Numbered from the stretch's first letter, positions 12,061-50,930 are shown. The stretch: 64,000 bases of DNA from Candidatus Latescibacterota bacterium (GCA_965222605.1 OZ244960.1:4256001-4320000), one strand, 5' to 3'. A program made the numbers and translations. Notes: generated by a model not told the origin, from the letters alone.

Positions 12061-13338
12061 TCAGGCCAGTCCTGCACGGCGAAGGGCGTCTGTCATGGCA
12101 TTATCGCTTTGAGACTCTTGCGTTTGCTTGGACTTAAATGCGGCCATGTCCTCAACTTCGGCGGTTTGCCTATCTTGTTCTTCAACGGCACGCATGGAGA
12201 GTGAGATGCGTTTTTTTCTCGAATCGATTTCGCGGATCAAGGTTTTGACTTCTTGGCCGACTGAAACGACTTCGCTGGGGTTTGAGATGCGTTTTCCCGA
12301 AACGAACTGCGAGATGTGGATCAGCCCCTCAATACCGGGTTCAATTTCGACAAAGGCACCGAAATTTTGGATTGAAACGACTTTGCCCGTGATGACGCTG
12401 CCTTCTCGGTAGCGCTCTGCTACCGTATCCCATGGATCTTTTTCCAGTGCTTTGATGGAGAGCGATATGCGCTCATTTTTTTTGCCCAGATTTTTGAGGC
12501 CGATTATTTTGACGCGCACTTCTTCGCCTTTTTTTAAGACACTGCGCGGATTTTCTACGCGGGTGTGGCTGATTTCTGAGACGTGTACCAGGCCTTCAAC
12601 ACCTCCCAAGTCAACAAAAGAGCCAAAGCGTTCTATGCGTGTAATAGTTCCCGTTCTTTCTTCACCTTCTGAGAGTTGTTGGCGCATCTCGTCGGCTTTT
12701 TTGCGATTTTCTTCTTCCAGATAAGCGCGGCGTGAAACAACGACATTGTTGCGTCCCCGCAGTTCAACAATTTTGAAGTTGTGGGTCTGGCCCGCATACG
12801 AAGCCGGGTCATTGCAATATCCCGTGTCAATTTGCGACATGGGGCAAAATGCGCGAAGGCCGCCGATATTCACCACGAGGCCTCCGGTATTGAAGCCGGT
12901 GACTTTGCCAGCGATGGGCATGTCGTTTTGATGTGCGTGACGCAGGAGTTGACGGCTGGAAACGCGCAACGAAAATGTCAGGCGTATTTCGCTATCAGTG
13001 CTGGCGACAAAGGCTTCGATGGTATCGCCAGTCTTGTATTTTAATTCGCCCGATTTGTCGCGCAGTTCTTGGATGTCTATTGATGCTTCACTGCGGCCAC
13101 CAAAGTCGATAAATGCTGTGGATTCACCAATTTCGCGGAGGGTTCCAGAGACTTTTTCGCCGGTAGAGACTTCGCGATAACTCCGCTTATCGCTTTCTTC
13201 GAGCAGTGTAGCAAATTCGGCATTAGGTGTGTCTTCGGCGTATTTTTTGTCGAGTTCTTCGACAGTGGGCGCGTCGTCTGAAGGGGCTTGGGCTGGTGTA
13301 TCGCCAGCCGTTTTGCCTGTTTTTTCGAGGGTGCTCAT
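12061..13338 (-). CDS. Ribosomal protein S1-like protein (four S1 domains)
   Basis: Start MSTLEK; repeated S1 motifs (FGSFVDLGGVEGLVHVSEIS, FGAFVEIEPGIEGLIHISQ). Confidence 0.88.
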   Translation of the reverse strand: MSTLEKTGKTAGDTPAQAPSDDAPTVEELDKKYAEDTPNAEFATLLEESDKRSYREVSTGEKVSGTLREIGESTAFIDFGGRSEASIDIQELRDKSGELKYKTGDTIEAFVASTDSEIRLTFSLRVSSRQLLRHAHQNDMPIAGKVTGFNTGGLVVNIGGLRAFCPMSQIDTGYCNDPASYAGQTHNFKIVELRGRNNVVVSRRAYLEEENRKKADEMRQQLSEGEERTGTITRIERFGSFVDLGGVEGLVHVSEISHTRVENPRSVLKKGEEVRVKIIGLKNLGKKNERISLSIKALEKDPWDTVAERYREGSVITGKVVSIQNFGAFVEIEPGIEGLIHISQFVSGKRISNPSEVVSVGQEVKTLIREIDSRKKRISLSMRAVEEQDRQTAEVEDMAAFKSKQTQESQSDNAMTDALRRAGLA

Positions 13339-13536
13339 AGTTTGTGACCTGTGGAATCGTTTTTGAGGGATGGGGGCTGTTAGATAGACTAAAGAATCTA
13401 TAAAGGATACCGAAAATAAGCAACCAAATTTTTCCTTCTCAGGTATAAATTTAGTGCCTACTCCGATCATGTGCTTAAAAAAAAGTGACAGTTTGACGTG
13501 TGTGATGTGTTATAAAAATAAAGCGATGAGTTGTCT

Positions 13537-38787: not shown

Positions 38788-40032
38788 ATGGCTTCTGATA
38801 AACCAAATATTATTCTGATTCTGTCCGATGATTTGGGATATGAATGCCTGGGGTGTTATGGAGGTGAATCATATCAAACGCCCGTGCTGGATGGTTTGAG
38901 CAAAGAGGGTATGCGTTTTGACCATGCATATGCCCTGCCGTTGTGTACGCCGACGCGGTTACAGTTGATGACGGGTAAATACAATTTTCGAAATTGGAGA
39001 GCTTTTGGGGTGATGGATCCCCATGAGCGCACTTTTGGGCATCTGATGAAAGCGGCTGGCTATAAGACGTGTATTTCGGGCAAATGGCAAATGTATAGCT
39101 ATAATCCGCCGGATTTTGAACCCGAGTGGCGCGGCAAAGGGCAACTGGCGGAAGATTCGGGTTTTGATGAGTATTGCTTGTGGCATACGGAACACACGGA
39201 GGATAAGGGATCGCGGTATGCCGATCCAGTAATTCAACAAAATGGGAAGTATTTGGAGGATACAGAGGGCAAGTACGGTCCGGATATTTATACGGCTTAT
39301 ATTTGCGATTATATCGAGCGACATAAGGACGATCCGTTTTTTGTGTATTACCCAATGGCGCTGACACACGGTCCGTTTGAACCGACGCCCCATAGCGAAA
39401 TATGGTCTGAAAACCGGCACGATAGCGGTGTGAAGTATTTTGTGGATATGGTTGAGTATATGGATGTGGTGATTGGGCGAATTGTGGATAAATTGGATGA
39501 ACTCGGTCTGAGAGAGAATACTCTGCTTCTGTTTATAGGCGATAATGGATCGCCCCGTCAGGTGACTTCTATTATCAATGGTCGCGAGTTCCAGGGGGGG
39601 AAGGGTCTTTCGACGGATGCGGGTACGCGGGTGCCACTTATTGCGAGTTGGTCGGGTACGATCCCACCGGGGTCTGTGTGTGATGATTTGATCGATTGCA
39701 GCGATTTTTTGCCGTTGATGATGGATATGGCTGGCACTTCTTTGCCCGAGGACGATGTGTTTGATGGGGTGTCATTTTTGCCTCAGTTAAAGGGCGAGAC
39801 GGGAACGCCGCGCGAGTGGATTTTTGCCCATCACGATCCTCTGCCCGGATGGGGTAAGGTGGGCTACTACTTAAAGCGATGGGCACAGGATAAACGTTGG
39901 AAGCTCTACGATACGGGCGATTTGTATGATGTTGTAGTAGATGAGTTGGAAGAACACCCAATCGTCGATGGAGGTGCAGAAGCAGAGGCAGCGCGACAAA
40001 AATTACAGCCCGTGCTGGATCGGATGAAGTGA
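38788..40032 (+). CDS. Sulfatase (arylsulfatase-like)
   Basis: PNIILILSDDLG, LCTPTR, GKW and GDNG motifs. Confidence 0.93.
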   Translation: MASDKPNIILILSDDLGYECLGCYGGESYQTPVLDGLSKEGMRFDHAYALPLCTPTRLQLMTGKYNFRNWRAFGVMDPHERTFGHLMKAAGYKTCISGKWQMYSYNPPDFEPEWRGKGQLAEDSGFDEYCLWHTEHTEDKGSRYADPVIQQNGKYLEDTEGKYGPDIYTAYICDYIERHKDDPFFVYYPMALTHGPFEPTPHSEIWSENRHDSGVKYFVDMVEYMDVVIGRIVDKLDELGLRENTLLLFIGDNGSPRQVTSIINGREFQGGKGLSTDAGTRVPLIASWSGTIPPGSVCDDLIDCSDFLPLMMDMAGTSLPEDDVFDGVSFLPQLKGETGTPREWIFAHHDPLPGWGKVGYYLKRWAQDKRWKLYDTGDLYDVVVDELEEHPIVDGGAEAEAARQKLQPVLDRMK

Positions 40033-40062
40033 GGCGGCGTTTATCTCGCCGATATTTCCAAC

Positions 40063-40091
40063 TTGACACAGTTTGTGTACAGCAATAAAAT
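40063..40091 (+). promoter_or_regulatory. Sigma70-type promoter of the ATPase/helicase cassette, with an internal inverted repeat
   Basis: TTGACA-N17-TAAAAT; ACACA-GTT-TGTGT overlaps the -35 element and spacer. Confidence 0.7.
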
Positions 40092-40138
40092 TACACGCGA
40101 GCAGAAATCACTTACACTCAAAGCAGAAGGTAATCCAA

Positions 40139-40972
40139 ATGGCAGATCGAGAAGAATTTCTTGAGCAAATGCAAGAGAGATTGACGGATGTGGTCAAGCC
40201 CTATCAACTACAGCAGAACCGCCGTCAAAGAATGGCCGATTTTGTGAAACAATGTGTCCGCTGTGCCGGGCGGAATGACTTTTTTCAACTCGACGAATTG
40301 CTGAAGTCTAAAATGGCACGCAATGTGCAAGAAGAAGTGGGGCTAAAGGAAGGTGCAGAATTTCTATATCAATTGCGTACTTATGCAGATGAACAGGTGG
40401 AGCGATACCGAATCCAATTTATAGAAGACCTGACGACATTAGCCAATGAAGCAAAACTTCCAATAGAGATCGATTTCCCGCGCATTGGAGTACTCAAGGG
40501 CATAGAGGGAGAAGTTGACTTTGCTCAGCGGAAAACTGTAATTAACAAAAAAGCCTTGAAATCCGTAGATCCAAAGCGTATTATTACCGCCCTGCGAAGG
40601 GTAAAGCAGCAACTCTATGATCGCCCTTATGATCCACAGGCATTTATTGACAAACTATATGACGTATATGCGGAAATTCTCAAAAAAGAAAAGCGAGAGA
40701 TGGGGCATCCCGTTGCAATGCAGCAATTATATCTGGAATATGTGTTATCTCTTCAGAGTCGGGCATTTTTTCAGGACATGGACAAGGGAAAGTTTCGAGG
40801 GTATAGCCTGGATCAATTTGCCGTAGATATTTGGCGTTATTTTCAGGCCGGTACTGGGGGCACGTCAAATGGCTATGCTGTGCAGCTAAGACCGGGGCGG
40901 AATAGGGCACTTTGGTTGATTGACAGCGATGGAGAACGGCGGCAGATTACCACCATTGCTTTTCAAACCTAA
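40139..40972 (+). CDS. Hypothetical cytoplasmic protein, first gene of the putative defence cassette
   Basis: 277-aa ORF starting MADREEF; no motif recognised; 15 bp upstream of the first ATPase. Confidence 0.8.
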   Translation: MADREEFLEQMQERLTDVVKPYQLQQNRRQRMADFVKQCVRCAGRNDFFQLDELLKSKMARNVQEEVGLKEGAEFLYQLRTYADEQVERYRIQFIEDLTTLANEAKLPIEIDFPRIGVLKGIEGEVDFAQRKTVINKKALKSVDPKRIITALRRVKQQLYDRPYDPQAFIDKLYDVYAEILKKEKREMGHPVAMQQLYLEYVLSLQSRAFFQDMDKGKFRGYSLDQFAVDIWRYFQAGTGGTSNGYAVQLRPGRNRALWLIDSDGERRQITTIAFQT

Positions 40973-40987
40973 AAAAGGACATGACGC

Positions 40988-42283
40988 ATGACACAAAAAG
41001 ATTTGGAGCAACTCAAACCCTTTGAGGCGCGGGCAATTATTGAAGATCTCCGAAAAGGTAGCGTGCCGATTGAGTATGTGCCCTTTTTTACTGTGGGTCG
41101 CCAGAACTGGTTGAAGTTTATCGAAGAAGACCTGGATAACTACATCGCAGAGGGGGGCGCGAAGGTTCGCTTTGTCAATGGTGACTACGGCGATGGCAAA
41201 ACGCATTTTATGTCGGTTATCAAGCACCTCGCGCTTCAAAAAAAATTCGCCGTGTCTTTTGTGGTGCTCACGCGCGAAGTGCCCATACACAAATTTGAGA
41301 TTGTCTATCAAATTATTGTGCGGCAACTTTGCGGTTCTTTTGAGGGCGTTGGTATCCGACAACTCGTTGATGCGTGGGTCGAAAATCTGAAAACCGATCT
41401 GACAGATGACGCACCCCTTGAAGAACAACTTTTTTTTGTGGGCGAAAGCCTGCGTGCCCTTTCTGGGATGGATCTCAACTTTGCCAACGCTCTGATTGGG
41501 TTGGCAGACAATCGTCTCAGACCTCTCGAGGTAGGTGAAGACGAAGAGGCGCGTGCATATCAGCGGGAGATTCTCTACCAGTGGTTTGAAGGCGCGCGGG
41601 TGAGCAAGCGAGAACTCAAACCGTTCCAGATTTTTGAAGCCCTTGATAAGACCAATAGCAAGCGATTTCTGACCTCGCTCATTGTCTTTTTGCGGCATCT
41701 CAACTACAAGGGCCTCGTGCTGTTGATGGACGAATTGGAAACCGTGATCGCCCAATCGACAACCATTCGCAATGCGTCATACGAAAATGTCCGCTTGCTG
41801 ATCGACAATGCCGAGCAGGCATCTTATTTGCATATTTTTATGTCCATCATTCCCGATGTGACGCTCTCAGAAAAGGGATTTAAGTCCTATGACGCCCTGT
41901 GGAGTCGCGTGCGTTCCATTGGGGAAAGCAAAAGACTGAATTACCGCAGCGTGTTGGTAGATCTTCACAGGACGCCTTTGGAAACGAGCGAGTTGGTCAA
42001 TCTGGGACTTTGCCTGAAACGCATTCACGAACTGTCCTACCGATGGGATGCCCAGGAACAGGTTGATGAAGCGTTGCTTAAAAAGATGTGTGCAGCGCAA
42101 AAGCGCATGGGGCTTTTAAGTGAGGTTCGGCTCTATATCAAGCAAGTCATCCGCATACTCGACATGGCCGAGCAAGGTGTGCCGCCAGACGAAGATATGG
42201 ATATGGCCGAGCAACTCGTGGTCAGCCAGCGGGAAATGGATCAAGAAAAAGTTGAGCAACTTCAACCGACGTGGGATGCCTGA
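40988..42283 (+). CDS. BrxD/DUF2791-like P-loop ATPase 1
   Basis: ARAIIEDLRKGSVP...TVGR, Walker A GDYGDGKTH, Walker B LLMDELE, G.KSYDALWSR. Confidence 0.85.
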   Translation: MTQKDLEQLKPFEARAIIEDLRKGSVPIEYVPFFTVGRQNWLKFIEEDLDNYIAEGGAKVRFVNGDYGDGKTHFMSVIKHLALQKKFAVSFVVLTREVPIHKFEIVYQIIVRQLCGSFEGVGIRQLVDAWVENLKTDLTDDAPLEEQLFFVGESLRALSGMDLNFANALIGLADNRLRPLEVGEDEEARAYQREILYQWFEGARVSKRELKPFQIFEALDKTNSKRFLTSLIVFLRHLNYKGLVLLMDELETVIAQSTTIRNASYENVRLLIDNAEQASYLHIFMSIIPDVTLSEKGFKSYDALWSRVRSIGESKRLNYRSVLVDLHRTPLETSELVNLGLCLKRIHELSYRWDAQEQVDEALLKKMCAAQKRMGLLSEVRLYIKQVIRILDMAEQGVPPDEDMDMAEQLVVSQREMDQEKVEQLQPTWDA

Positions 42284-43500
42284 TGACCGACTTTCACACC
42301 CCATCCAATGAAACGGAATTCCACCTGCGGCGTGCAACAGAACGCCTGCGGGAGGGGCTTTTTGATCCGGTTGCGGTTCGCTTGCTCACAGCCCGCGAAA
42401 GCCGCCTGAACAAAATCATTGACCGCGACTTTCAAAAACTCGATCAAAATAAGGCGACCCACCTGTGCATCTGTGGGGCTTATGGACAGGGTAAATCGCA
42501 CAGTTTGAACTATATCCAGGACAGGGCCCTGCGCGAAAATTTTGTGACCAGCCTGATCAATTTGGACCCTCGAGAAATTCCCTTTCACGATATGCGACGG
42601 GTCTATCATGCCCTGGTCGCCTCTATGAGATTTCCAGACACAGACACCTCATGGGCAGCGCGATGGCGCGTTTTTGCCGCTGGCCTGCCGCACGAAGACT
42701 TTGAAGACCGGGTCGCCCCGCTTTTACACCGTGAAATGCCACACCTGTTCCGATCTGTCCTGACCGCGATGGCTCAAAAAACAATCTCCCTTTCAAAGCG
42801 ACAGCGCGGCACCAAAAAACACGCCTCATACCGCCCTCGTGAATTTCCCTACCTGCTTTCCCGCGCGCTTACAGGCGATGTGGTTCCGGTCTATCGCCTG
42901 CGCCATGCCCTCAAGTACCGACAGGTTGATTTTTACAAAGATGAATCACTTACCTGTAAAGGTGCAGAGCCTTATCTTCAAATGATTCGCGGATTGGGGC
43001 AGCTTTTCCAGATGATGGGCTACCGGGGATGGGTGTTGTTGTTTGACGAAGGAGAATCGATTTCTCAAGTGCGCGTGACCAGCCGCAGCCGCAGTTACCA
43101 GATTCTGGATCAGATGCTTTTCCCTGAAGTTCCGTCCGCATCTGTTTATCCGGTTTTTGCCTTTACAGACGACTTTTTTTACAAAGTAGATGAAGAAGAA
43201 TACGACCGCGTGCGAATCCGCAACGAAGAGGAAATTCCCTATTTTGAGAAAAATTACGCCCGTGCATGGACGGGTCTGAAACGCTATCCCCTTCAGGATT
43301 TGTCTGCCAAAGAGTGGCACGCGTTGATCGAAAAATTGATGCACTTGCATGCCAGAGCTTATCAGTGGCAGCCCGATGCCGATGTGCAGCGCGACATGAC
43401 CCGACGATTATCGCACATGCAAGGGCAGGAGACGCGCTATCGGCTCAAAGGTCTGGTCGATGAATTGGACCTCGCACATCAAGCCCAAATACTGATTTAA
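42283..43500 (+). CDS. BrxD/DUF2791-like P-loop ATPase 2
   Basis: TGATG coupling to ATPase 1; RRATERLREG, Walker A GAYGQGKSH, Walker B GWVLLFDEGE. Confidence 0.8.
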   Translation: MTDFHTPSNETEFHLRRATERLREGLFDPVAVRLLTARESRLNKIIDRDFQKLDQNKATHLCICGAYGQGKSHSLNYIQDRALRENFVTSLINLDPREIPFHDMRRVYHALVASMRFPDTDTSWAARWRVFAAGLPHEDFEDRVAPLLHREMPHLFRSVLTAMAQKTISLSKRQRGTKKHASYRPREFPYLLSRALTGDVVPVYRLRHALKYRQVDFYKDESLTCKGAEPYLQMIRGLGQLFQMMGYRGWVLLFDEGESISQVRVTSRSRSYQILDQMLFPEVPSASVYPVFAFTDDFFYKVDEEEYDRVRIRNEEEIPYFEKNYARAWTGLKRYPLQDLSAKEWHALIEKLMHLHARAYQWQPDADVQRDMTRRLSHMQGQETRYRLKGLVDELDLAHQAQILI

Positions 43501-43529
43501 ACCCTATCAGCACATGTTTTGTAACCACC

Positions 43530-46500
43530 ATGTCTGAACCTATCTCGCCTCTGCTTCAACTGCCCAATACCTGCCGCGCATTCTACGGCTCTTTTCCCCA
43601 TCTCTATCCCTTTCAAAAGCAAGCGATTGAACCGCTCTTGCAGGGCAAAGATCTGATCTTACAATCGGCAACCGGCTCTGGCAAAACCGAAGCCGTGCTG
43701 GCGCCGTGTATCGAGCGCGTGATTCAATCGGGGCGGCGACAAACCGCGCTTTATGTGGTGCCCACCCGCGCCCTGGCCGTGGATTTGGAACGCCGTTTGA
43801 CGCCTGTCTTAAAGGACAGACTCGGCCTGCAAATTGGAATACGCACGGGCGATTTCAAACGGGCGGGCGGGGCATTGCCCGATTTGTTATTGACAACGCC
43901 CGAATCTTTTGATGTGCTCATGGGCAGTCCAAATGCAGATTTAAAACAGTTTGTACAGCGCATTCGCACGGTCATTATCGATGAAGCACATCCTTTTATT
44001 CATCAGTATCGCGGGCGGCAATTATCCTATTTGCTCACGCGCTTGCAACGCCGCATCGCCCATCCCGTGCAAAAGATCGCCCTTTCCGCCACGCTTTCCG
44101 ATGTCGAGGAGGTCGCCCGTTTTTTTGGCTTCCGAACCGATACCGTTTTCCTGACCGAATCTGTCCAACGCGATATTGTCCCCCATCTGATCCATCTCAA
44201 AAACGATGAGGTCGAACTCGTCGCGCTCCTAAACGATCTCTACGAAACCTACGAGTATCGCAAAATTTTGTTATTCGCCAACAGCCGGGGGTGTTGCGAC
44301 CGGCTGTTTTCTCTTTTGTCGCGTCAGGGTGCGTTTCAAGGTGTTACTGACCTCCACTACTCCAACCTCAATGCCAGCACGCGCCGCGCCGTGGAATACC
44401 GATTTCGCCGCCGCGAACACGCCCTTTGCATTGCCACCAGCACCCTTGAACTCGGCATAGATATCGGCGATGTGGATAGCGTCTTGCTCTACGAACCGCC
44501 GGATTCCATATCGGCCTTTCTCCAGCGCATTGGTCGCTCCAACCGGCGAGAGGGGCGTACGCACTTTTGGGGAATATGCCGCGGCGCAGATGCACAGGCG
44601 CAATTGCTCAGATTTTTGGGAATGCTCAACAGGGCGCGCCGCGGCCATATTGAAACACCGCAACCCAAAACTCTGCCCAGCGTTCTCGTCCAGCAAATGC
44701 TCTCCTGCCTCTACGAAAAGAAAACTATCACGCAGTCTGCTCTTTGCGATTTGTTTCCAGACCAGCGAGATATGATCGCACCGTTGTTTGAGGCCATGGC
44801 GCGGCAACAGTGGCTGCAAAAAGATCGCGTCACGGGCCTTTTTAAGGGTGGATGGTGCTATCGCGATTGTTTTTTAGAACGGCGTATTTGGAGCAATTTT
44901 CCCGACATGGAAGAGGATTATGTGCTGGAATATGCGGGCGAAGCCATTGCAGACTTGCCCAAATTCATCGTTCGGCAATTGGAACTCGGCGACCGCGTGC
45001 AACTGACGGGCAAACGATTGCGCGTTTTGAATATTGAAACGGGTGAACGCAAAAGAGTTATTGCCCAACCCACCGATCAAATAGAAACCAAAGAGCTTTT
45101 CTGGCTGGGTGCGGGGTTTCGGGTTTCTTATGAAGTCGCACAATCGGTTCGAGATGTACTTCAGACAGATGTGCAACAAAGCGCGTCTGGCTTATTTTCC
45201 CGCACGCGAAAATTGTTCAACGATGCGGCAAAAAGGCTAAAGCGCGTGGTCGTTTTGCACAATGGCATCGAAGTTGAGCGCAGCTTGAACAACTTGTATC
45301 GCTATCGCACCTATCTCGGTTCTGTAGGCAATCTCGTGCTTCAGTGGATTATTGAACGCGATTACGGCGATCTCAAAGATTTTATGGTGACTTCCGATAG
45401 TATCGGTATCGATTGTTCTCATTGGATTGATTTTCAAACGCTCCACCTCCCACAAGACCGCGAAGATTTTGTCCAATGGGTGGCAAATCATCTCGAATCC
45501 CTGTATAGCCTGTTTCAGCTCAATGCCTTTTGCGAGGCATTGCCCGGCGCCTTGTTGGTGCAAGAAGTGACAGATTTCCTCTTTGACCCGCGCGTTGCCA
45601 AAACCTTCCAGCACTACCTGAAACACCCTTCGGAAATCGCATCTGGCGATCCTGGCCTGCTCACGGAAGATATCCATGTGACCGAATCTCACCCCATTTT
45701 TTTGGATACAAAAATACAAACCGATCTGCTCACCAGGGAAAAACAGCGGTGGCATGCGGATCGACACGCGGAACAGCCATCTGACCTACAGTATCGCCCG
45801 CGGTCACTCACGGGCACAATGGTGGGCGCGTATTTTTTGCACCATCAATGTGAACGGTGGTTGGCCCTCAATTTTGTTCCAGCTAAACAAAGGCGGTGGC
45901 GAGATAGCGATACAGATTTGGACACTCTTCGGATGGAACGGGGAAACCTGCACGAAAAACAGGTGCTGAATCGCATTCGGAATGTCTTGCACGAAGTGCC
46001 GGCCTTTGATACCAACGGCACGCGACTTTCTCTCAAATCGCGATTTGAAACAACCCGAACGCTGTTGAAAGATCTGGCACGCGACGCAACCTCCAATCAA
46101 TCTACATTTTTGTTTCAAGCTGTCCTGATCCAACCATCTGTTTTGGGACAACAAGACCACTGGGTGAGCGAGGTAGATGGCATCGGTATTCCCGATCTCA
46201 TCCGCATTTCAAAAGAAGACCGCGGCGTTGTGTTGCAAGTGGGCGATATCAAAGACAGTCGCAGGCCCTACGAGACACAAAAGTGGCAGGTTGCATTTTA
46301 CGCCTATATGCTCGACAGCTTGATCGCACAGCACGAGTTGCCCATGCGCGTGGCGTCTTCGGGATTTTTGATGCTGCGTCCCGCACAGGAAAACGAAGCC
46401 CCCGAACCGCATTTTTTTGATCTCGAACCCTACCTGGCGGCACTTCCTATGCTGTTTCGAAATATGGGCAACGTATTGCAACGCGCACCTGCCCGCGCGC

Positions 46501-49211
46501 GTTATCACCTCCAAACCCACTGTACGGGGTGCCCCAATTTTGAGGCGTGTTATCGGGAAGCACTTCAGACAGAGGATATTCACCTTTTGCCGCATCTGAG
46601 CGCGGGGACGTTGCAAAAGTTTCGCCAATGCGGTCTCAAAACTATGGCATCTGCCCATGCGTGGTTTGAATCTGCGTCCGCTTCAGAAGGCGATCTTTTC
46701 AGCCCACATCAAAAAACACAACTTTCGGGTCAACTCGCCGCGCTTCAGGCAAATAAAATTGGTCTAAAGAAAGAAAAAACGCGGTTTTATCCGAGCAATC
46801 TGTCCACCGCCATTTTCATATATGTCGTCGAAGATCCCCTTTCTGGGCTCCCACGCGCGATAGGTTGGCGCGCTGTGCAGGGGGCAACGGTGGTCGAGAA
46901 CCATATCTGGCATGTCGCATCGGAGCGCGAGTTATCAGAGGCATTGCAGGACTTCACAGCGCGTTTTTTGTCCGTCTGGAATCAGAGCATCAAAGGCGGA
47001 CGGGGACCGCATATCTTTCATTTTGGAGCGCGTTGCTGGCAAACTTTTGAAGAATGGTGCGAGTCATCAGAAGACCTGTCTTTTTTGTTTTTGCCCCATC
47101 GCAACCACCGAACAGATTTGCAAAAGCTGATCGCGTCGCACTTCGACTTTCCAATGCCGGGAAATCCGACGCTTTTTGCCCTCAATCGCCTGTTGGGTCT
47201 CAATGCCGAACTTCCCGAACCGCAAAGTCTGTTTCATTTTGATGACGACGAATGGATACAAAATGAAGACGAAAAAAAAATGGTTGACTATCTCAACGCG
47301 GTATTGAGCCTGAAAATATCGCTGTGGCAATGGACATCATCGCACTTGACGAGCGATTGGGAACAAGACGAATGGAAAGATGAGGAACACAGCCCGCAAA
47401 CGGCCTATTTAAATTTTCTATCAGAGGAGCAGCGGCTCCGCGAAGAAGATGTGCTCGCCTTGCAAGCCCTGCCACTGTCAGAACGCGTTGAACGCTTTCG
47501 CGCGATTGGTCCCATCCGTTTTCGGAAAACGACGCTTGACGACGAAGGCCGCTTCCTCTACGAATTTCAAACAGAAGCGGGCCTCTCAAAATTTCGCGCG
47601 GGCGATTTTCTCAAACTTGCACCTGTTGGCCTGTTAGATGTGCAAAACGGTTTGTCCGTCATCCTGACAGATCACAGCTCGGAACGCCTGTGGGTGCAGT
47701 CTCGGCAGGGACGATTGGCCTTAAACGAGAGACTTTTGTATTCTCTGGAAGAGGACCTGACCGATTGGAATGGCCCTCGCCTGGTTCACGCTGTTCAGGC
47801 TGTTTTTTTCGAAGATCATTTCCACCTCCTATCCAAGCTATTTTCTGGCACCTGGCGCACGGCAAGAGAACCCGACGCGCTGAGATGGGTGCATAATTGG
47901 ATGCGCGGATTTGGCGCGATATCCGGACTCAATGCAATGCAACAACAGGCACTATCATTGCCTTTTAAGCATCGCTTGAGCCTGATTGAAGGGCCGCCAG
48001 GAACGGGTAAAACACACTTATTGGGCTGGATATTGGTTGCATTGATTCTGCATGCTCAAGAGCAGGGCAGACCGCTGCGTATTGCCGTCAGCGCGTTGAC
48101 GCATCAGGCCATTGACCAGGTGCTGAAAAAAGTGGTCGCGCTCGTCAAACAACACGGCTTGCAGGGCTTTCCCGCCCGATGCTTCAAATTGGGACGGTGG
48201 GATTTGACAGAGCGCGGGGTAGAACCCTTAGAGGATGTGGAAACACTCGCAGAATCTCCTTATGCAATTGTAGGTGCCACGGGATTTGGTCTCTATCAGC
48301 TACTCGAAGGTCGCAAAGGGACTTTCCCGCAGGTATTTGATTGGGTTGTGTTTGATGAGGCATCTCAAATGCTCATTCCCCAGGCCCTGTTGAGCCTGCT
48401 CTATGGCAAGGGAAATTTTCTGTTTGCCGGAGATACAAAACAATTACCGCCCATTGTCCTGGGAGATTACAAAGGGAAGGAAATGAGCATACATCATTCC
48501 GCGCTGTCCCATCTTATCAATCAATACGATCCCTCGCACCGCGTTCGATTGGATCGCACGTATCGGATGAACGAAGACCTGTGTTCTTTTCCCAGTCACA
48601 TGTGGTATGACCGCGATCTTCGCGCCCACGCTGGCAATGCACAAAACCGACTCGTGCTGCAACATACCGACCACCGCGATCTTTTAGACCGCGTTCTCGA
48701 TCTCAAAAAACCAGTTGTACTCCTCATCGTAGATCACCAGGGCCACCACCAGAAATCCGATGAGGAAATTGAGATTACAACCCAACTCGCTCATCGCCTG
48801 ATTGCCGAACACGGTTTGGATCCCGATCAAATCGCGCTGATTTCTCCCCACCGCGCACAAAACAACGCCACTGCGGACCGCCTCACACAGCGACTTGGAG
48901 ATGCCAACGCCAAACTGCCCTTAATCGATACGGTAGAACGCGTGCAAGGCGCAGAGCGCGATGTGATTTTGTATGCGTTCACCACCTCCGATCCCGACTA
49001 TGTCTCCAGCCCATTTTTGAACAACCCAAATCGCTTTAATGTGGCAATCACACGCGCCCGACAAAAGCTGATTGTGGTGGGCAGCAAAGCATTTTTCTCT
49101 GCCATTCCACAAACAGAGGACGCCTTAAAAGCCAACCGCTGTTTTAAGGCGTTTTACGAATTTTGTCGAGAACGAGATAGCCTCTTTTTTTTGGGTGGAA
49201 CTAACTCCTAA
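43530..49211 (+). CDS. 1893-aa fusion: Lhr-like SF2 helicase, PD-(D/E)XK RecB-like nuclease and Upf1/DNA2-like SF1 helicase
   Basis: SF2: ATGSGKT, PTRAL, DEAH, SAT, QRIGRSNR. Nuclease: GIPDL...GDIK...QVAFY with a C...CxxCxxxxxC pattern. SF1: GPPGTGKT, DEASQ, GDTKQLPP, YRM, QGAERD, RFNVAITRAR. Confidence 0.9.
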   Translation: MSEPISPLLQLPNTCRAFYGSFPHLYPFQKQAIEPLLQGKDLILQSATGSGKTEAVLAPCIERVIQSGRRQTALYVVPTRALAVDLERRLTPVLKDRLGLQIGIRTGDFKRAGGALPDLLLTTPESFDVLMGSPNADLKQFVQRIRTVIIDEAHPFIHQYRGRQLSYLLTRLQRRIAHPVQKIALSATLSDVEEVARFFGFRTDTVFLTESVQRDIVPHLIHLKNDEVELVALLNDLYETYEYRKILLFANSRGCCDRLFSLLSRQGAFQGVTDLHYSNLNASTRRAVEYRFRRREHALCIATSTLELGIDIGDVDSVLLYEPPDSISAFLQRIGRSNRREGRTHFWGICRGADAQAQLLRFLGMLNRARRGHIETPQPKTLPSVLVQQMLSCLYEKKTITQSALCDLFPDQRDMIAPLFEAMARQQWLQKDRVTGLFKGGWCYRDCFLERRIWSNFPDMEEDYVLEYAGEAIADLPKFIVRQLELGDRVQLTGKRLRVLNIETGERKRVIAQPTDQIETKELFWLGAGFRVSYEVAQSVRDVLQTDVQQSASGLFSRTRKLFNDAAKRLKRVVVLHNGIEVERSLNNLYRYRTYLGSVGNLVLQWIIERDYGDLKDFMVTSDSIGIDCSHWIDFQTLHLPQDREDFVQWVANHLESLYSLFQLNAFCEALPGALLVQEVTDFLFDPRVAKTFQHYLKHPSEIASGDPGLLTEDIHVTESHPIFLDTKIQTDLLTREKQRWHADRHAEQPSDLQYRPRSLTGTMVGAYFLHHQCERWLALNFVPAKQRRWRDSDTDLDTLRMERGNLHEKQVLNRIRNVLHEVPAFDTNGTRLSLKSRFETTRTLLKDLARDATSNQSTFLFQAVLIQPSVLGQQDHWVSEVDGIGIPDLIRISKEDRGVVLQVGDIKDSRRPYETQKWQVAFYAYMLDSLIAQHELPMRVASSGFLMLRPAQENEAPEPHFFDLEPYLAALPMLFRNMGNVLQRAPARARYHLQTHCTGCPNFEACYREALQTEDIHLLPHLSAGTLQKFRQCGLKTMASAHAWFESASASEGDLFSPHQKTQLSGQLAALQANKIGLKKEKTRFYPSNLSTAIFIYVVEDPLSGLPRAIGWRAVQGATVVENHIWHVASERELSEALQDFTARFLSVWNQSIKGGRGPHIFHFGARCWQTFEEWCESSEDLSFLFLPHRNHRTDLQKLIASHFDFPMPGNPTLFALNRLLGLNAELPEPQSLFHFDDDEWIQNEDEKKMVDYLNAVLSLKISLWQWTSSHLTSDWEQDEWKDEEHSPQTAYLNFLSEEQRLREEDVLALQALPLSERVERFRAIGPIRFRKTTLDDEGRFLYEFQTEAGLSKFRAGDFLKLAPVGLLDVQNGLSVILTDHSSERLWVQSRQGRLALNERLLYSLEEDLTDWNGPRLVHAVQAVFFEDHFHLLSKLFSGTWRTAREPDALRWVHNWMRGFGAISGLNAMQQQALSLPFKHRLSLIEGPPGTGKTHLLGWILVALILHAQEQGRPLRIAVSALTHQAIDQVLKKVVALVKQHGLQGFPARCFKLGRWDLTERGVEPLEDVETLAESPYAIVGATGFGLYQLLEGRKGTFPQVFDWVVFDEASQMLIPQALLSLLYGKGNFLFAGDTKQLPPIVLGDYKGKEMSIHHSALSHLINQYDPSHRVRLDRTYRMNEDLCSFPSHMWYDRDLRAHAGNAQNRLVLQHTDHRDLLDRVLDLKKPVVLLIVDHQGHHQKSDEEIEITTQLAHRLIAEHGLDPDQIALISPHRAQNNATADRLTQRLGDANAKLPLIDTVERVQGAERDVILYAFTTSDPDYVSSPFLNNPNRFNVAITRARQKLIVVGSKAFFSAIPQTEDALKANRCFKAFYEFCRERDSLFFLGGTNS

Positions 49212-49326
49212 CCCCTAACACTTTGTTCCATCCGAGATGGCTATTGTGAACATATCGTTCAATACATGTTTGCTTTGATGTGGTGTAATTTTTTTTATAA
49301 CAATAAGTTATTGCTCCGGACGGTTC

Positions 49327-49341
49327 TGGCATAATCCTTGC
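49327..49341 (+). promoter_or_regulatory. Putative sigma54 promoter upstream of comM
   Basis: TGGCATAATCCTTGC (GG-N10-GC) about 50 bp upstream of the start; IHF-like TAACAATAAGTTA just upstream. Confidence 0.6.
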
Positions 49342-49391
49342 CTGATTGTAGTGCTTCTTTCAGTTGGTTCCTTTCAGGCAAGGAGGTTTTG

Positions 49392-50930
49392 ATGACTGCG
49401 CGTGTGTTGAGTTGTGCAACACTGGGTATTGATGCGTATATCGTGCATATTGAGGCGGATATTTCGCGTCGGCTTCCCTCGTTTTCAGTGGTGGGTTTGC
49501 CCGATAGTGCTGTGAAGGAAAGCCGGGACCGGGTGATGGCTGCGATTAAAAATGCCGGGCGAACATTTCCAAATAATCGGATTACGGTGAATTTGGCACC
49601 GGCAGATATCCGAAAAGAAGGCTCGGCATTTGATTTGCCGATTGCCATAGGCATTATTGCCGCAATGAGCGGTTCAATTTCACCCGAGAAGCTGTCGCAA
49701 TATCTCATTTTGGGCGAGTTGGCTTTAGATGGCAGGGTGCGTCCTGTGCGCGGTGCGCTGTCAATGGCTGTGGAAGCCAAAAAGGCGGGCTTAAAAGGGT
49801 TGCTCATTCCTGTGGAAAATGCGCGGGAGGCGGCGATTACCGGCGATTTGAATGTTTTGCCGGTGCGCGATTTGGGTGAGGCACTGGATTTTTTGGAGGA
49901 CTACTGCGATATTATGCCCTTTGAAGTCAATAGCAAAGCGATTTTCCGGCAGGCGCGGACCCATCGGGTGGATTTTAAGGATGTGCGCGGACAAGAACAT
50001 GCAAAGCGCGCGCTGGAGGTGGCGGCGGCGGGCGCGCATAACGCGATTCTTATGGGGCCACCCGGGTCGGGGAAGACGATGCTCGCCAGAAGATTGCCGA
50101 CCATTTTACCCGATCTGACCCTGGACGAGGCACTGCAGACGACAAAAATTCACTCGGTGGCGGGGTTGCTGCCACCCGATACGGCAGTGGTGGCGATAAG
50201 GCCCTTTCGGTCGCCGCATCACACGATTTCAGATGCGGGATTGATCGGCGGTGGTCCCTATCCCCGACCGGGAGAAGTGTCGATGGCACATCACGGGGTG
50301 CTGTTTTTGGATGAGCTTCCCGAATTTAAGAAACAGGTTTTGGAGTCCCTGCGCCAACCTATTGAGGACAGTTTTGTGACGATTGCACGGGCGGCGATAT
50401 CGCTTTCATATCCCGCGCAGTTTATGCTCGTTTGCGCTATGAATCCGTGTCCATGCGGGTATTTGGGCGATCCACACCACGAGTGTATTTGCTCGCCACC
50501 TGTGATCCAACGCTATATCAATCGAATCTCGGGACCGTTGATGGATCGCATTGATATTCACGTAGAAGCCCCGGCTGTGCAGTATGAAGAACTGGTCAAT
50601 GAACCCGCTGGCGAGTCTTCCGCAGAGGTTCGCAAGCGCGTGCAAGCCGCCCGGCAAATGCAATTGGAACGGTTTGGGGATTATACAGATTTGTTTAGCA
50701 ACGCGCACATGGGGCCGCGAGAGATTCGGTTGTTTTGTAAAATAGATGATAAGAGCCAGGAGTTGCTGCGGATGGCGATTACGCGATTGGGGCTGTCGGC
50801 GCGGGCTTATGATCGAATCCTGAAGGCGAGCCGCACGATAGCAGACCTGGAGGGTGAAGAGGATATCCAGTCGCGCCATGTTGCCGAGGCGATTCAATAT
50901 CGCAGTCTGGACAGGAGATTGTGGGAGTGA
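49392..50930 (+). CDS. comM: YifB/ComM Mg-chelatase-like AAA+ ATPase
   Basis: VGLPDSAVKESRDRV, GPPGSGKTMLA, RPFRSPHH, LFLDELPEF and MNPCPCG motifs; AGGAGG RBS. Confidence 0.93.
   Translation: MTARVLSCATLGIDAYIVHIEADISRRLPSFSVVGLPDSAVKESRDRVMAAIKNAGRTFPNNRITVNLAPADIRKEGSAFDLPIAIGIIAAMSGSISPEKLSQYLILGELALDGRVRPVRGALSMAVEAKKAGLKGLLIPVENAREAAITGDLNVLPVRDLGEALDFLEDYCDIMPFEVNSKAIFRQARTHRVDFKDVRGQEHAKRALEVAAAGAHNAILMGPPGSGKTMLARRLPTILPDLTLDEALQTTKIHSVAGLLPPDTAVVAIRPFRSPHHTISDAGLIGGGPYPRPGEVSMAHHGVLFLDELPEFKKQVLESLRQPIEDSFVTIARAAISLSYPAQFMLVCAMNPCPCGYLGDPHHECICSPPVIQRYINRISGPLMDRIDIHVEAPAVQYEELVNEPAGESSAEVRKRVQAARQMQLERFGDYTDLFSNAHMGPREIRLFCKIDDKSQELLRMAITRLGLSARAYDRILKASRTIADLEGEEDIQSRHVAEAIQYRSLDRRLWE

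Follow-up and report, generated by a model that had tools for sequence, protein, structure and literature searches.

Organization of the cassette

The 64,000-nt stretch of DNA analysed here, referred to as the window, belongs to Candidatus Latescibacterota bacterium (GCA_965222605.1 OZ244960.1:4256001-4320000; genome G000), and all coordinates are those of the window unless another sequence is named. At positions 40063-49211, it contains a cassette of four genes, g1 to g4, which encode a small protein, two ATPases related to BrxD of BREX and SngB of Shango, and a giant protein that combines two helicases with a nuclease. Reading of the open reading frames (ORFs) and their spacings from the sequence established that the genes are co-oriented on the + strand and closely packed. 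The spacings reported in an earlier, purely sequence-based interpretation of the window, called here the original prediction, were all confirmed: g1 and g2 are separated by 15 bp, the stop codon of g2 overlaps the start codon of g3 in the sequence TGATG, and a gap of 29 bp precedes g4. The cassette contains the following features:

40033..49219, + strand: whole inserted block, variably present between the stop codon of the sulfatase gene and the spacer upstream of comM, defined by empty-site alignment
40063..40091, + strand: TTGACA-N17-TAAAAT promoter-like site, 11/12 matches, the best in 39900-49450
40139..40972, + strand: g1, 277 aa from the first ATG, which is the likely start (a mechanical TTG start gives 40073..40972)
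40988..42283, + strand: g2, BrxD/SngB-like ORC/Cdc6-type AAA+ ATPase, 431 aa
42283..43500, + strand: g3, divergent paralogue of g2, 405 aa, ATG at 42283
43530..49211, + strand: g4, 1893-aa fusion protein, presumed effector
43593..45608, + strand: g4 residues 22-693, predicted BrxHI/Lhr-type superfamily 2 (SF2) helicase with C-terminal domains (BrxHI/SngC models, Lhr 5v9x)
45807..46559, + strand: g4 residues about 760-1010, predicted Cas4/AddB/Dna2-type PD-(D/E)xK nuclease with four conserved cysteines (motifs in 21 homologues)
46557..47789, + strand: g4 residues about 1010-1420, conserved connecting region with a possible RNase H-like fold and barrel (ESM Atlas lead only)
47928..49169, + strand: g4 residues 1467-1880, predicted superfamily 1B (SF1B; Dna2/Upf1-type) helicase (AAA_11/AAA_12, DNA2 5eax)

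The paired ATPases g2 and g3

The two divergent BrxD/DUF2791-like paralogues of the original prediction are g2 and g3, which are 23% identical to each other over their full length (E 2e-13). Both exceed the 22.2-bit cut-off of the Pfam family PF10923 (BrxC_BrxD), g2 with 189 bits (1.6e-55) and g3 with 80 bits (1.9e-22), and the genome contains no further strong copy of this family besides the cassette ATPases. The best PADLOC model for g2 is BrxD (1.4e-43), followed by SngB (2.1e-33), and the same two models match g3 with E-values of 2.3e-18 and 2.3e-10, respectively. The Walker A motif GDYGDGKTH and the Walker B residues D248-E249 of g2 are invariant in 20 homologues, and the Walker A motif G65..G68-Q-G-K71 and the Walker B residues D255-E256 of g3 are invariant in 19. 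The presence of both intact motifs in both proteins is consistent with their membership in the ORC/Cdc6 clade of AAA+ ATPases. The mean column identity of the g2 alignment is 72%. Passages of a BREX survey describe BrxD as an ORC/Cdc6-clade AAA+ ATPase without DNA-binding domains, and propose that it serves as a loader or activator of the helicase BrxHI (PMC12839542). The duplication of the ATPase in the cassette suggests that g2 and g3 may form a heterodimer, as in archaeal Orc1 pairs.

Two helicases and a nuclease in g4

The N-terminal part of g4 resembles the helicase that accompanies BrxD-type ATPases. The PADLOC model of BrxHI matches it from position 22 to 687 of 698, that is, over the whole model (2.9e-87), and the SngC model matches residues 22-618 over positions 22-641 of 720 (3e-73). 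The best solved relative of this motor is mycobacterial Lhr (5v9x, 6.7e-35), and its top match in NCBIfam is the ligase-associated DNA-damage-response DEXH helicase (1.7e-60), with a score far under the model's cut-off of 850. The C-terminal motor, residues 1467-1880, matches AAA_11 (2e-22) and AAA_12 (6.6e-30), as well as the PADLOC models DpdJ (1.5e-45) and MkoA (4.2e-45), and its best solved relative is mouse DNA2 (5eax, 5.6e-24). Lhr-type helicases travel in the 3'-to-5' direction and Dna2/Upf1-type helicases in the 5'-to-3' direction. Judged by these families, the two motors of g4 are expected to have opposite polarities.

The region that follows the first helicase contains the putative nuclease. 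Residues C774, D889, (D/E)906-I-K908, Q920, Y924 and C998-x2-C1001-x5-C1007 are conserved in 21 aligned homologues, and provide all elements of the Cas4/AddB/Dna2 motif, which consists of D...(D/E)xK...QxxxY together with one N-terminal and three C-terminal cysteines (C...CxxCx5C). The CxxCx5C motif is present in 33/33 loci with full g4. The nuclease of the window itself scores 21.9 bits with PDDEXK_1 (cut-off 22; 1.9e-4) and 15.2 bits with Cas_Cas4 (cut-off 22.7); across the homologues, Cas_Cas4 matches 19/21 (best 1e-6) and PDDEXK_1 12/21. PADLOC 2.0.0 has no model for this region. The conserved motifs and the C-terminal AAA_11/AAA_12 matches bear out the fused nuclease and second helicase of the original prediction, and we conclude from the alignments that the predicted nuclease is a genuine part of g4. 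Its four-cysteine motif is a predicted iron-sulfur site. Nearly all of the 33 loci retain the helicase and nuclease motifs. Where the first helicase motif seems to be missing, a GSGKS variant is present, the misses of locus L023 are due to a contig end, the g4 frame of L063 is interrupted, and a few further motif misses remain.

The nuclease and the second helicase are connected by the region of residues 1010-1420, for which there was no match in Pfam or the PDB; PDB sequences were searched with the single sequence and with a profile, and nothing significant was obtained. The nearest ESM Atlas clusters carry RNase_H_2 (PF13482), with scores of 0.88 and 0.87, which are under the 0.9 mark.

The first protein, g1

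No model of Pfam or PADLOC (E up to 0.01) or of NCBIfam matches the g1 protein. When 30 g1 members were compared with Pfam, 15 families were obtained, each matching one member (best E 3.9e-4) and none of them recurrent, and the g1 profile found nothing under E 0.075 among PDB sequences. The superfamily comprises 366 clusters at 50% identity (E up to 0.001), and its full-length members are nearly all stand-alone proteins of 260-300 aa.

The AlphaFold2 model of g1, with a predicted local distance difference test score (pLDDT) of 88.7, starts with a long helical hairpin (residues 2-104) and continues as an alpha/beta part, which is composed of a small beta unit and a C-terminal winged-helix-like part. 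A Foldseek search of the PDB with the whole model yielded nothing at E up to 0.001, and a wide VIA search yielded only generic helical-hairpin matches with Z up to 8.4. The C-terminal part was also modelled alone (pLDDT 80.4). Its top VIA matches, with Z up to 6.0, are Cdc6, ORC1, Cdt1 and others, largely winged-helix domains; the best Foldseek match has E 0.24, and the winged-helix resemblance is weak, under the trustworthy level. Among 30 diverse members of the family, only hydrophobic and aromatic positions are kept, which favours a structural or binding role over catalysis. The g1 protein is thus probably non-enzymatic, and its modelled winged-helix-like domain could provide DNA or partner binding. 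The predicted complex of g1 and g2 scored 0.00 (mark 0.32), a value that weighs neither for nor against binding.

Presence and absence in the genus

The cassette is not universally conserved in synteny, as g1 is carried by 5/21 genomes of the genus, including G000, and by 10/168 genomes of the phylum Latescibacterota. The block is located directly upstream of comM in all five genus carriers. Inspection of the comM upstream region in 10 of the 16 genus non-carriers revealed no cassette genes in any of them. The sulfatase gene and comM are 135 bp apart in seven of these ten genomes and adjacent with spacers of 276 and 646 bp in two, and the remaining genome has no sulfatase within 12 kb of comM. 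Alignment with four empty sites shows that the block is a clean indel of about 9.2 kb, with one junction immediately behind the stop codon of the sulfatase gene and the other at about 49219, and no direct repeats or att-like sites were seen at the junctions in this alignment. The sulfatase at the empty site of G015 (L118 1726-2963) aligns as two adjoining segments (residues 1-102 and 104-414), a pattern indicative of a frameshift or an error in sequencing.

A flank tree was calculated from comM and downstream DNA of 19 genomes; the truncated G012 and G016, in which comM had no match, were excluded. The carriers are scattered in this tree, and at least four gains or losses are needed to explain their distribution, which is no better than shuffled labels (220/500 as low). 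The cassette tree of the five genus carriers is compatible with the flank tree, so repeated loss and exchange by flanking homology are indistinguishable.

The comM neighbourhood bears on the possibility that the cassette encodes an accessory DNA-repair or recombination machine without a role in immunity. In such a machine, g4 would be an end-resection or fork-processing enzyme, analogous to AddAB, AdnAB and RecBCD, recruited to damage by the ATPases and g1. The neighbourhoods of the cassette are of the housekeeping type, with comM next door in this genus, and the best solved relatives of g4 are Lhr and DNA2. The top NCBIfam match of the g4 N-terminus, a DNA-damage-response helicase hit far under its cut-off, points in the same direction, as do the high conservation of the proteins and the grouping of the copies by lineage. 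However, the cassette is dispensable, since it is missing from 16/21 genus and 158/168 phylum genomes, and the comM neighbourhood is confined to this genus, while the flanks differ in other taxa. Furthermore, g2 and g3 have significant matches only to BREX and Shango ATPase models in the searched libraries, and the plasmid copy described below lies beside a toxin-antitoxin pair. We consider a repair function unlikely.

Conservation across phyla, split forms and short forms

A scan of one genome per species identified 105 stretches encoding g1 relatives, of which the best 80 loci were kept. Their neighbours were determined by tblastn, and the counts given here are restricted to loci with room, meaning enough flanking sequence. 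The g2 gene follows g1 in 73/73 loci, and g3 follows g1-g2 in 59/63, with one more partial case. A full fused g4 is positioned directly downstream, with short gaps, in 30/40 loci, and upstream of g1 in two further loci. Only the BrxHI-like part is present in 4/40 loci, one of which is cut by the locus end, and the 6/40 loci without g4 downstream come from Electrothrix (four) and Eth-SRB1 (two). Copies of the cassette are also present in Thermodesulfobacteriota, Nitrospirota, SAR324 and Chlamydiota, at identities of 50-70% for g1 and for g2. Cultured carriers exist, namely Desulfobacter curvatus DSM 3379, D. vibrioformis DSM 8776, D. latus AcRS2 and Desulforhabdus sp. TSK. In the cassette tree, the copies are largely grouped by lineage, and those from Latescibacterota form one clade with support 99; some of the NCBI labels in this tree are unreliable, for example 'Myxococcota' for old Deltaproteobacteria bins. 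A 3.9-kb contig labelled Promethearchaeota archaeon (L030) carries g1-g3 nearly identical to those of the Thermodesulfobacteriota bin L031, its sister in the tree at branch lengths of about 0.01. A bacterial contig placed in the wrong bin is more likely here than a copy from an archaeon.

The g1-g3 genes and g4 are separable modules. The chromosome of Electrothrix YB6 (L027, L127) encodes a g4 homologue, a 2026-aa open frame, about 2.1 Mb from g1-g3. The g3 homologue of this strain (L027 12127-13371) is split into two ORFs, 12127..12711 and 12757..13371. Desulfobacteraceae Eth-SRB1 (the genome of L047; L126, L129) contains two full-length g4 homologues on separate contigs, neither adjoining g1-g3, which are 49-50% identical over the nuclease and SF1B half. 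No Dna2-like half was found in the genomes of L035 and L083 at E up to 1e-20.

Distant relatives of the cassette are short forms, in which a g1-like protein and two BrxD-like ATPases are combined with a helicase of about 670-700 aa that lacks the nuclease. One of them is located on the 26.9-kb Desulfomonile tiedjei plasmid pDESTI.01 (L124, NC_018026.1, 10215-15641), where a 279-aa hypothetical protein that is 28% identical to g1 is accompanied by two 'BREX system ATP-binding domain' proteins and a 701-aa DEAD/DEAH helicase. This short form is downstream of ParA and a helix-turn-helix (HTH) protein, and near an AbiEi/AbiEii toxin-antitoxin pair. A second short form, in another Latescibacterota genome, is followed by unrelated biosynthetic genes. 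The nuclease-less short forms indicate that the invariant core consists of g1, two ATPases and a BrxHI-type helicase, and that the nuclease and second helicase are an addition in this branch.

The existence of split and short forms could also mean that the cassette comprises two independent neighbouring systems, a g1-g2-g3 ATPase module and a single-gene helicase-nuclease defence similar to Nhi, the name given to a nuclease-helicase defence type, or to Dna2. In favour of this arrangement, g4 can sit elsewhere in the genome, and the nuclease half can be missing. Nevertheless, the short and split forms still keep a BrxHI-type helicase, either with g1-g3 or elsewhere in the genome, and the fused g4 directly follows the other genes in three quarters of the loci with room (30/40). 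In addition, the BrxHI part of g4 corresponds to the known partner of BrxD-type ATPases, according to passages of the BREX survey (PMC12839542). A pair of unconnected systems is therefore very improbable.

The plasmid copy relates to another explanation, in which the ORC-like initiators and the helicase help to replicate or maintain a plasmid or an integrated element, or serve as a weapon against competing elements, and the chromosomal copies are remnants. The combination of ORC/Cdc6-type ATPases with a winged-helix-like protein and a helicase is reminiscent of initiator and loader sets, and the pDESTI.01 short form comes after ParA and an HTH protein. In contrast, the block in the window contains no integrase, relaxase or partition gene, and its junctions lack repeats. 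Most copies are chromosomal, intact and constrained across many lineages. A distant relative is present in only one of 72,556 plasmid records, and a search of 50,697 phage records and of IMG/VR gave no g1 relative. A mobile-element module is accordingly a poor candidate explanation.

Comparison with known systems

Shango consists of the TerB-like protein SngA, the ATPase SngB and the DEAD/DEAH helicase SngC, and protects against phages, as stated in the passages of the reports that concern it (PMC10250203; 10.1101/2022.05.11.491447 for its composition; PMC10250203 for protection). The cassette shares with Shango a small first gene, an ATPase of the PF10923 BrxD family and an Lhr-like helicase, arranged as a stand-alone operon without a methyltransferase, and SngB-type ATPases (2.1e-33 for g2, 2.3e-10 for g3) and an SngC-type helicase (3e-73) are both present. 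However, the TerB first gene is absent and replaced in position by g1, with its helical hairpin and winged-helix-like domain. The lack of a recognisable TerB gene, as originally predicted, extends to the whole genome, in which PF05099 has 0 matches (98.68% complete; control genomes respond). The ATPase is duplicated in the cassette into 23% identical paralogues, and the SngC-type part is fused to a further 1200 residues including the nuclease and the second helicase. Finally, the cassette proteins score higher with BREX type 2 models than with Shango models.

The models of BREX type 2 (Pgl), in particular BrxD and BrxHI, give the best scores for g2, g3 and the g4 N-terminus, and the tight linkage of the ATPase and helicase genes is likewise a trait of BREX type 2 in passages of the survey (PMC12839542). 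Nevertheless, PglZ, PglX, BrxC and PglW are not near the cassette, which is bounded by the sulfatase gene and comM, and the absence of a BREX core noted in the original prediction is correct. The only ORF of the genome with a PglZ domain (G000:C1:4418670-4419245, a 534-aa frame, 64.6 bits) is about 113 kb downstream of the cassette. The NCBIfam BrxD equivalog NF033438, with a cut-off of 350 bits, is not reached by g2 (146.4) or g3 (65.1), and g1, the second ATPase and the Dna2-like half are extras of the cassette. By its gene content, the cassette is neither BREX nor Shango, yet it appears to be built on their ATPase-helicase engine.

The second half of g4 resembles Dna2 (PDB 5eax) in the succession of a PD-(D/E)xK nuclease with a Cas4-like four-cysteine motif and an SF1B helicase. 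However, the g4 nuclease has no significant sequence match to Dna2 itself, a region of about 400 residues that is possibly RNase H-like (a lead only) separates the nuclease from the helicase, and the entire unit is fused behind an Lhr-type helicase and encoded together with ATPases.

RecBCD, AddAB and AdnAB combine two motors of opposite polarity with a RecB/AddB-type nuclease, and AddB bears an iron-sulfur staple. The g4 protein is similar to these enzymes in its predicted nuclease type and in the predicted opposite polarity of its motors. It differs from them in that all parts are in one polypeptide, one motor belongs to SF2 and not to SF1A, and the cassette is accessory and not core. We claim homology no further than the nuclease superfamily and the SF1B core.

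The named ESM Atlas clusters nearest to g4 residues 1010-1420 are uncharacterised TM0106-type proteins, mainly from Actinomycetota, with a RecB-like nuclease, RNase_H_2 and AAA_11. The clusters carry RNase_H_2, and some of their members PDDEXK_1, Cas_Cas4 or AAA_11; with scores of 0.75-0.88 and no alignment or E-value, these matches are leads only. Judged by the cluster labels, the TM0106-type proteins differ from g4 in having neither the Lhr-type half nor ATPase partners.

Proposed function and mechanism

Based on these comparisons, we propose that the cassette is probably an anti-phage or anti-plasmid system that acts on its own, spreads horizontally, is frequently lost and has the BrxD-BrxHI (SngB-SngC) pair as its engine. 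The best matches of g2, g3 and the g4 N-terminus are models of defence proteins (BrxD/SngB, BrxHI/SngC), and the catalytic motifs of the ATPases, helicases and nuclease are conserved. The four genes travel together, with an accessory distribution that extends over several phyla and includes a plasmid-borne short form. The original prediction had described a stand-alone anti-phage or anti-plasmid system of unrecognised architecture. The architecture stands: a nearby BREX core and TerB are absent, none of the defined system models was matched in full, PADLOC 2.0.0 contains no model that matches g1, and the article texts searched gave no description of the cassette. The defensive function is our inference and is not accompanied by a clear defence-island signal.

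Several observations weigh against a role in defence. The genes flanking the cassette in the window are metabolic or housekeeping (sulfatase, dehydratase, MFS transporter, comM) and do not form a recognisable defence island. The 105 flanking ORFs of 22 related loci, searched with PADLOC and Pfam (10 ORFs singly), gave no clear defence-island signal, a result that lacks a baseline and so is not evidence of absence. Their PADLOC matches are scattered and mostly generic (mad2 7, mad8 5, mad3 3, one SspH-like), and their Pfam matches include 4 PIN and 3 AAA_21. The cassette encodes no modification enzyme or other evident self/non-self device, and g1 relatives are missing from the phage and IMG/VR records mentioned above. 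The proteins are unusually well conserved for a defence system, as illustrated by g2 (72% mean column identity), and the lineage grouping of the copies fits long vertical residence as well as transfer. Since the short forms have no nuclease, degradation cannot be the general mechanism of the family. The case for defence consists of the homology of three of the four proteins to parts of BREX type 2 and Shango and of the patchy, indel-like distribution. The neighbourhoods without a recognisable defence island, strong conservation, lack of copies among the phage and IMG/VR records searched and lack of an evident self/non-self device are the reasons why we keep the repair and mobile-element explanations as rivals to defence.

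If the cassette is a defence system, its mechanism may be envisaged as follows. The g1, g2 and g3 proteins would constitute a sensing or loading module that recognises a feature of incoming DNA and loads or licenses g4. The effector g4 would unite a Dna2/AddB-type nuclease in one chain with two motors, one of the Lhr type moving 3'-to-5' and one of the Dna2 type moving 5'-to-3'. It may run along both strands of a DNA end and degrade the DNA as RecBCD or AddAB do. Complex formation and the DNA target are, like the defence role itself, presumed in this mechanism.

More tentatively, the cassette could represent a new immune family, in which an ORC-like heterodimeric ATPase, together with g1 as a winged-helix adaptor, loads a helicase on foreign DNA, so that the logic of origin licensing is turned to defence. 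Here, the enzyme to be loaded would be a bipolar helicase-nuclease similar to RecBCD but made as a single chain, and would destroy the DNA. The first gene would then be an exchangeable sensor of the BrxD-BrxHI engine, represented by TerB in Shango, by PglW and the BREX core in Pgl, and by g1 here. We regard this extended scenario as a speculation that is more doubtful than the defence role as such.

In BREX type 2 and in Shango, no part is understood less well than the BrxD-BrxHI (SngB-SngC) pair. The cassette presents this pair without the BREX core or TerB, together with the new conserved partner g1 and, in this branch, with a fused nuclease and second motor as the apparent effector. It thus offers a simpler setting for asking what the ATPases sense and how the helicase is controlled, and the cultured carriers make a functional test feasible. 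Because the g1 family is large (366 clusters) and without annotation, a tested function would name many genes.

Flanking genes, promoter and additional observations

NCBIfam models corroborate the originally proposed flanks, a sulfatase-like gene upstream and comM downstream. The upstream gene matches an arylsulfatase model with 5.5e-35, under the model's cut-off, and the downstream comM/YifB gene matches TIGR00368 with 1.1e-195, over the cut-off. Upstream of the cassette in a Desulfobulbaceae bin (L034 1973-4294), a 773-aa ORF matches the C-terminal part of PADLOC SspH (1.5e-58), and is among the few defence-like neighbours of the related loci.

The TTGACA-N17-TAAAAT promoter of the original prediction was located at 40063-40091, and this site is the top match (11/12) in the region. 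The number of promoter-like sites in 39900-49450 is not above chance (9, compared with 7.5 +/- 2.9 in shuffles), so only quality and position favour a promoter at 40063-40091, and the consensus may not be that of the phylum.

Two sponge metatranscriptome runs contain four short contigs (154-446 nt, 97.9-100% identical) that cover the g1/g2 junction, g3 and the g4 N-terminus, and none on the flanks. The runs were selected with words of the cassette itself, which makes the missing cover of the flanks meaningless, and DNA carry-over is possible; the contigs are at most a weak hint of transcription of the cassette.

One contig of DNA run X1 links both ends of the segment 49177-49324 and omits 146 bases, which include the last g4 codons and part of the comM spacer. 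Its depth is 18.3, compared with about 53-86, and it is probably a co-occurring strain variant. A mechanical ORF of 289 aa on the minus strand (40886-41755) is antisense over the g1/g2 junction and lies wholly within well-supported genes; it is most likely not a gene.

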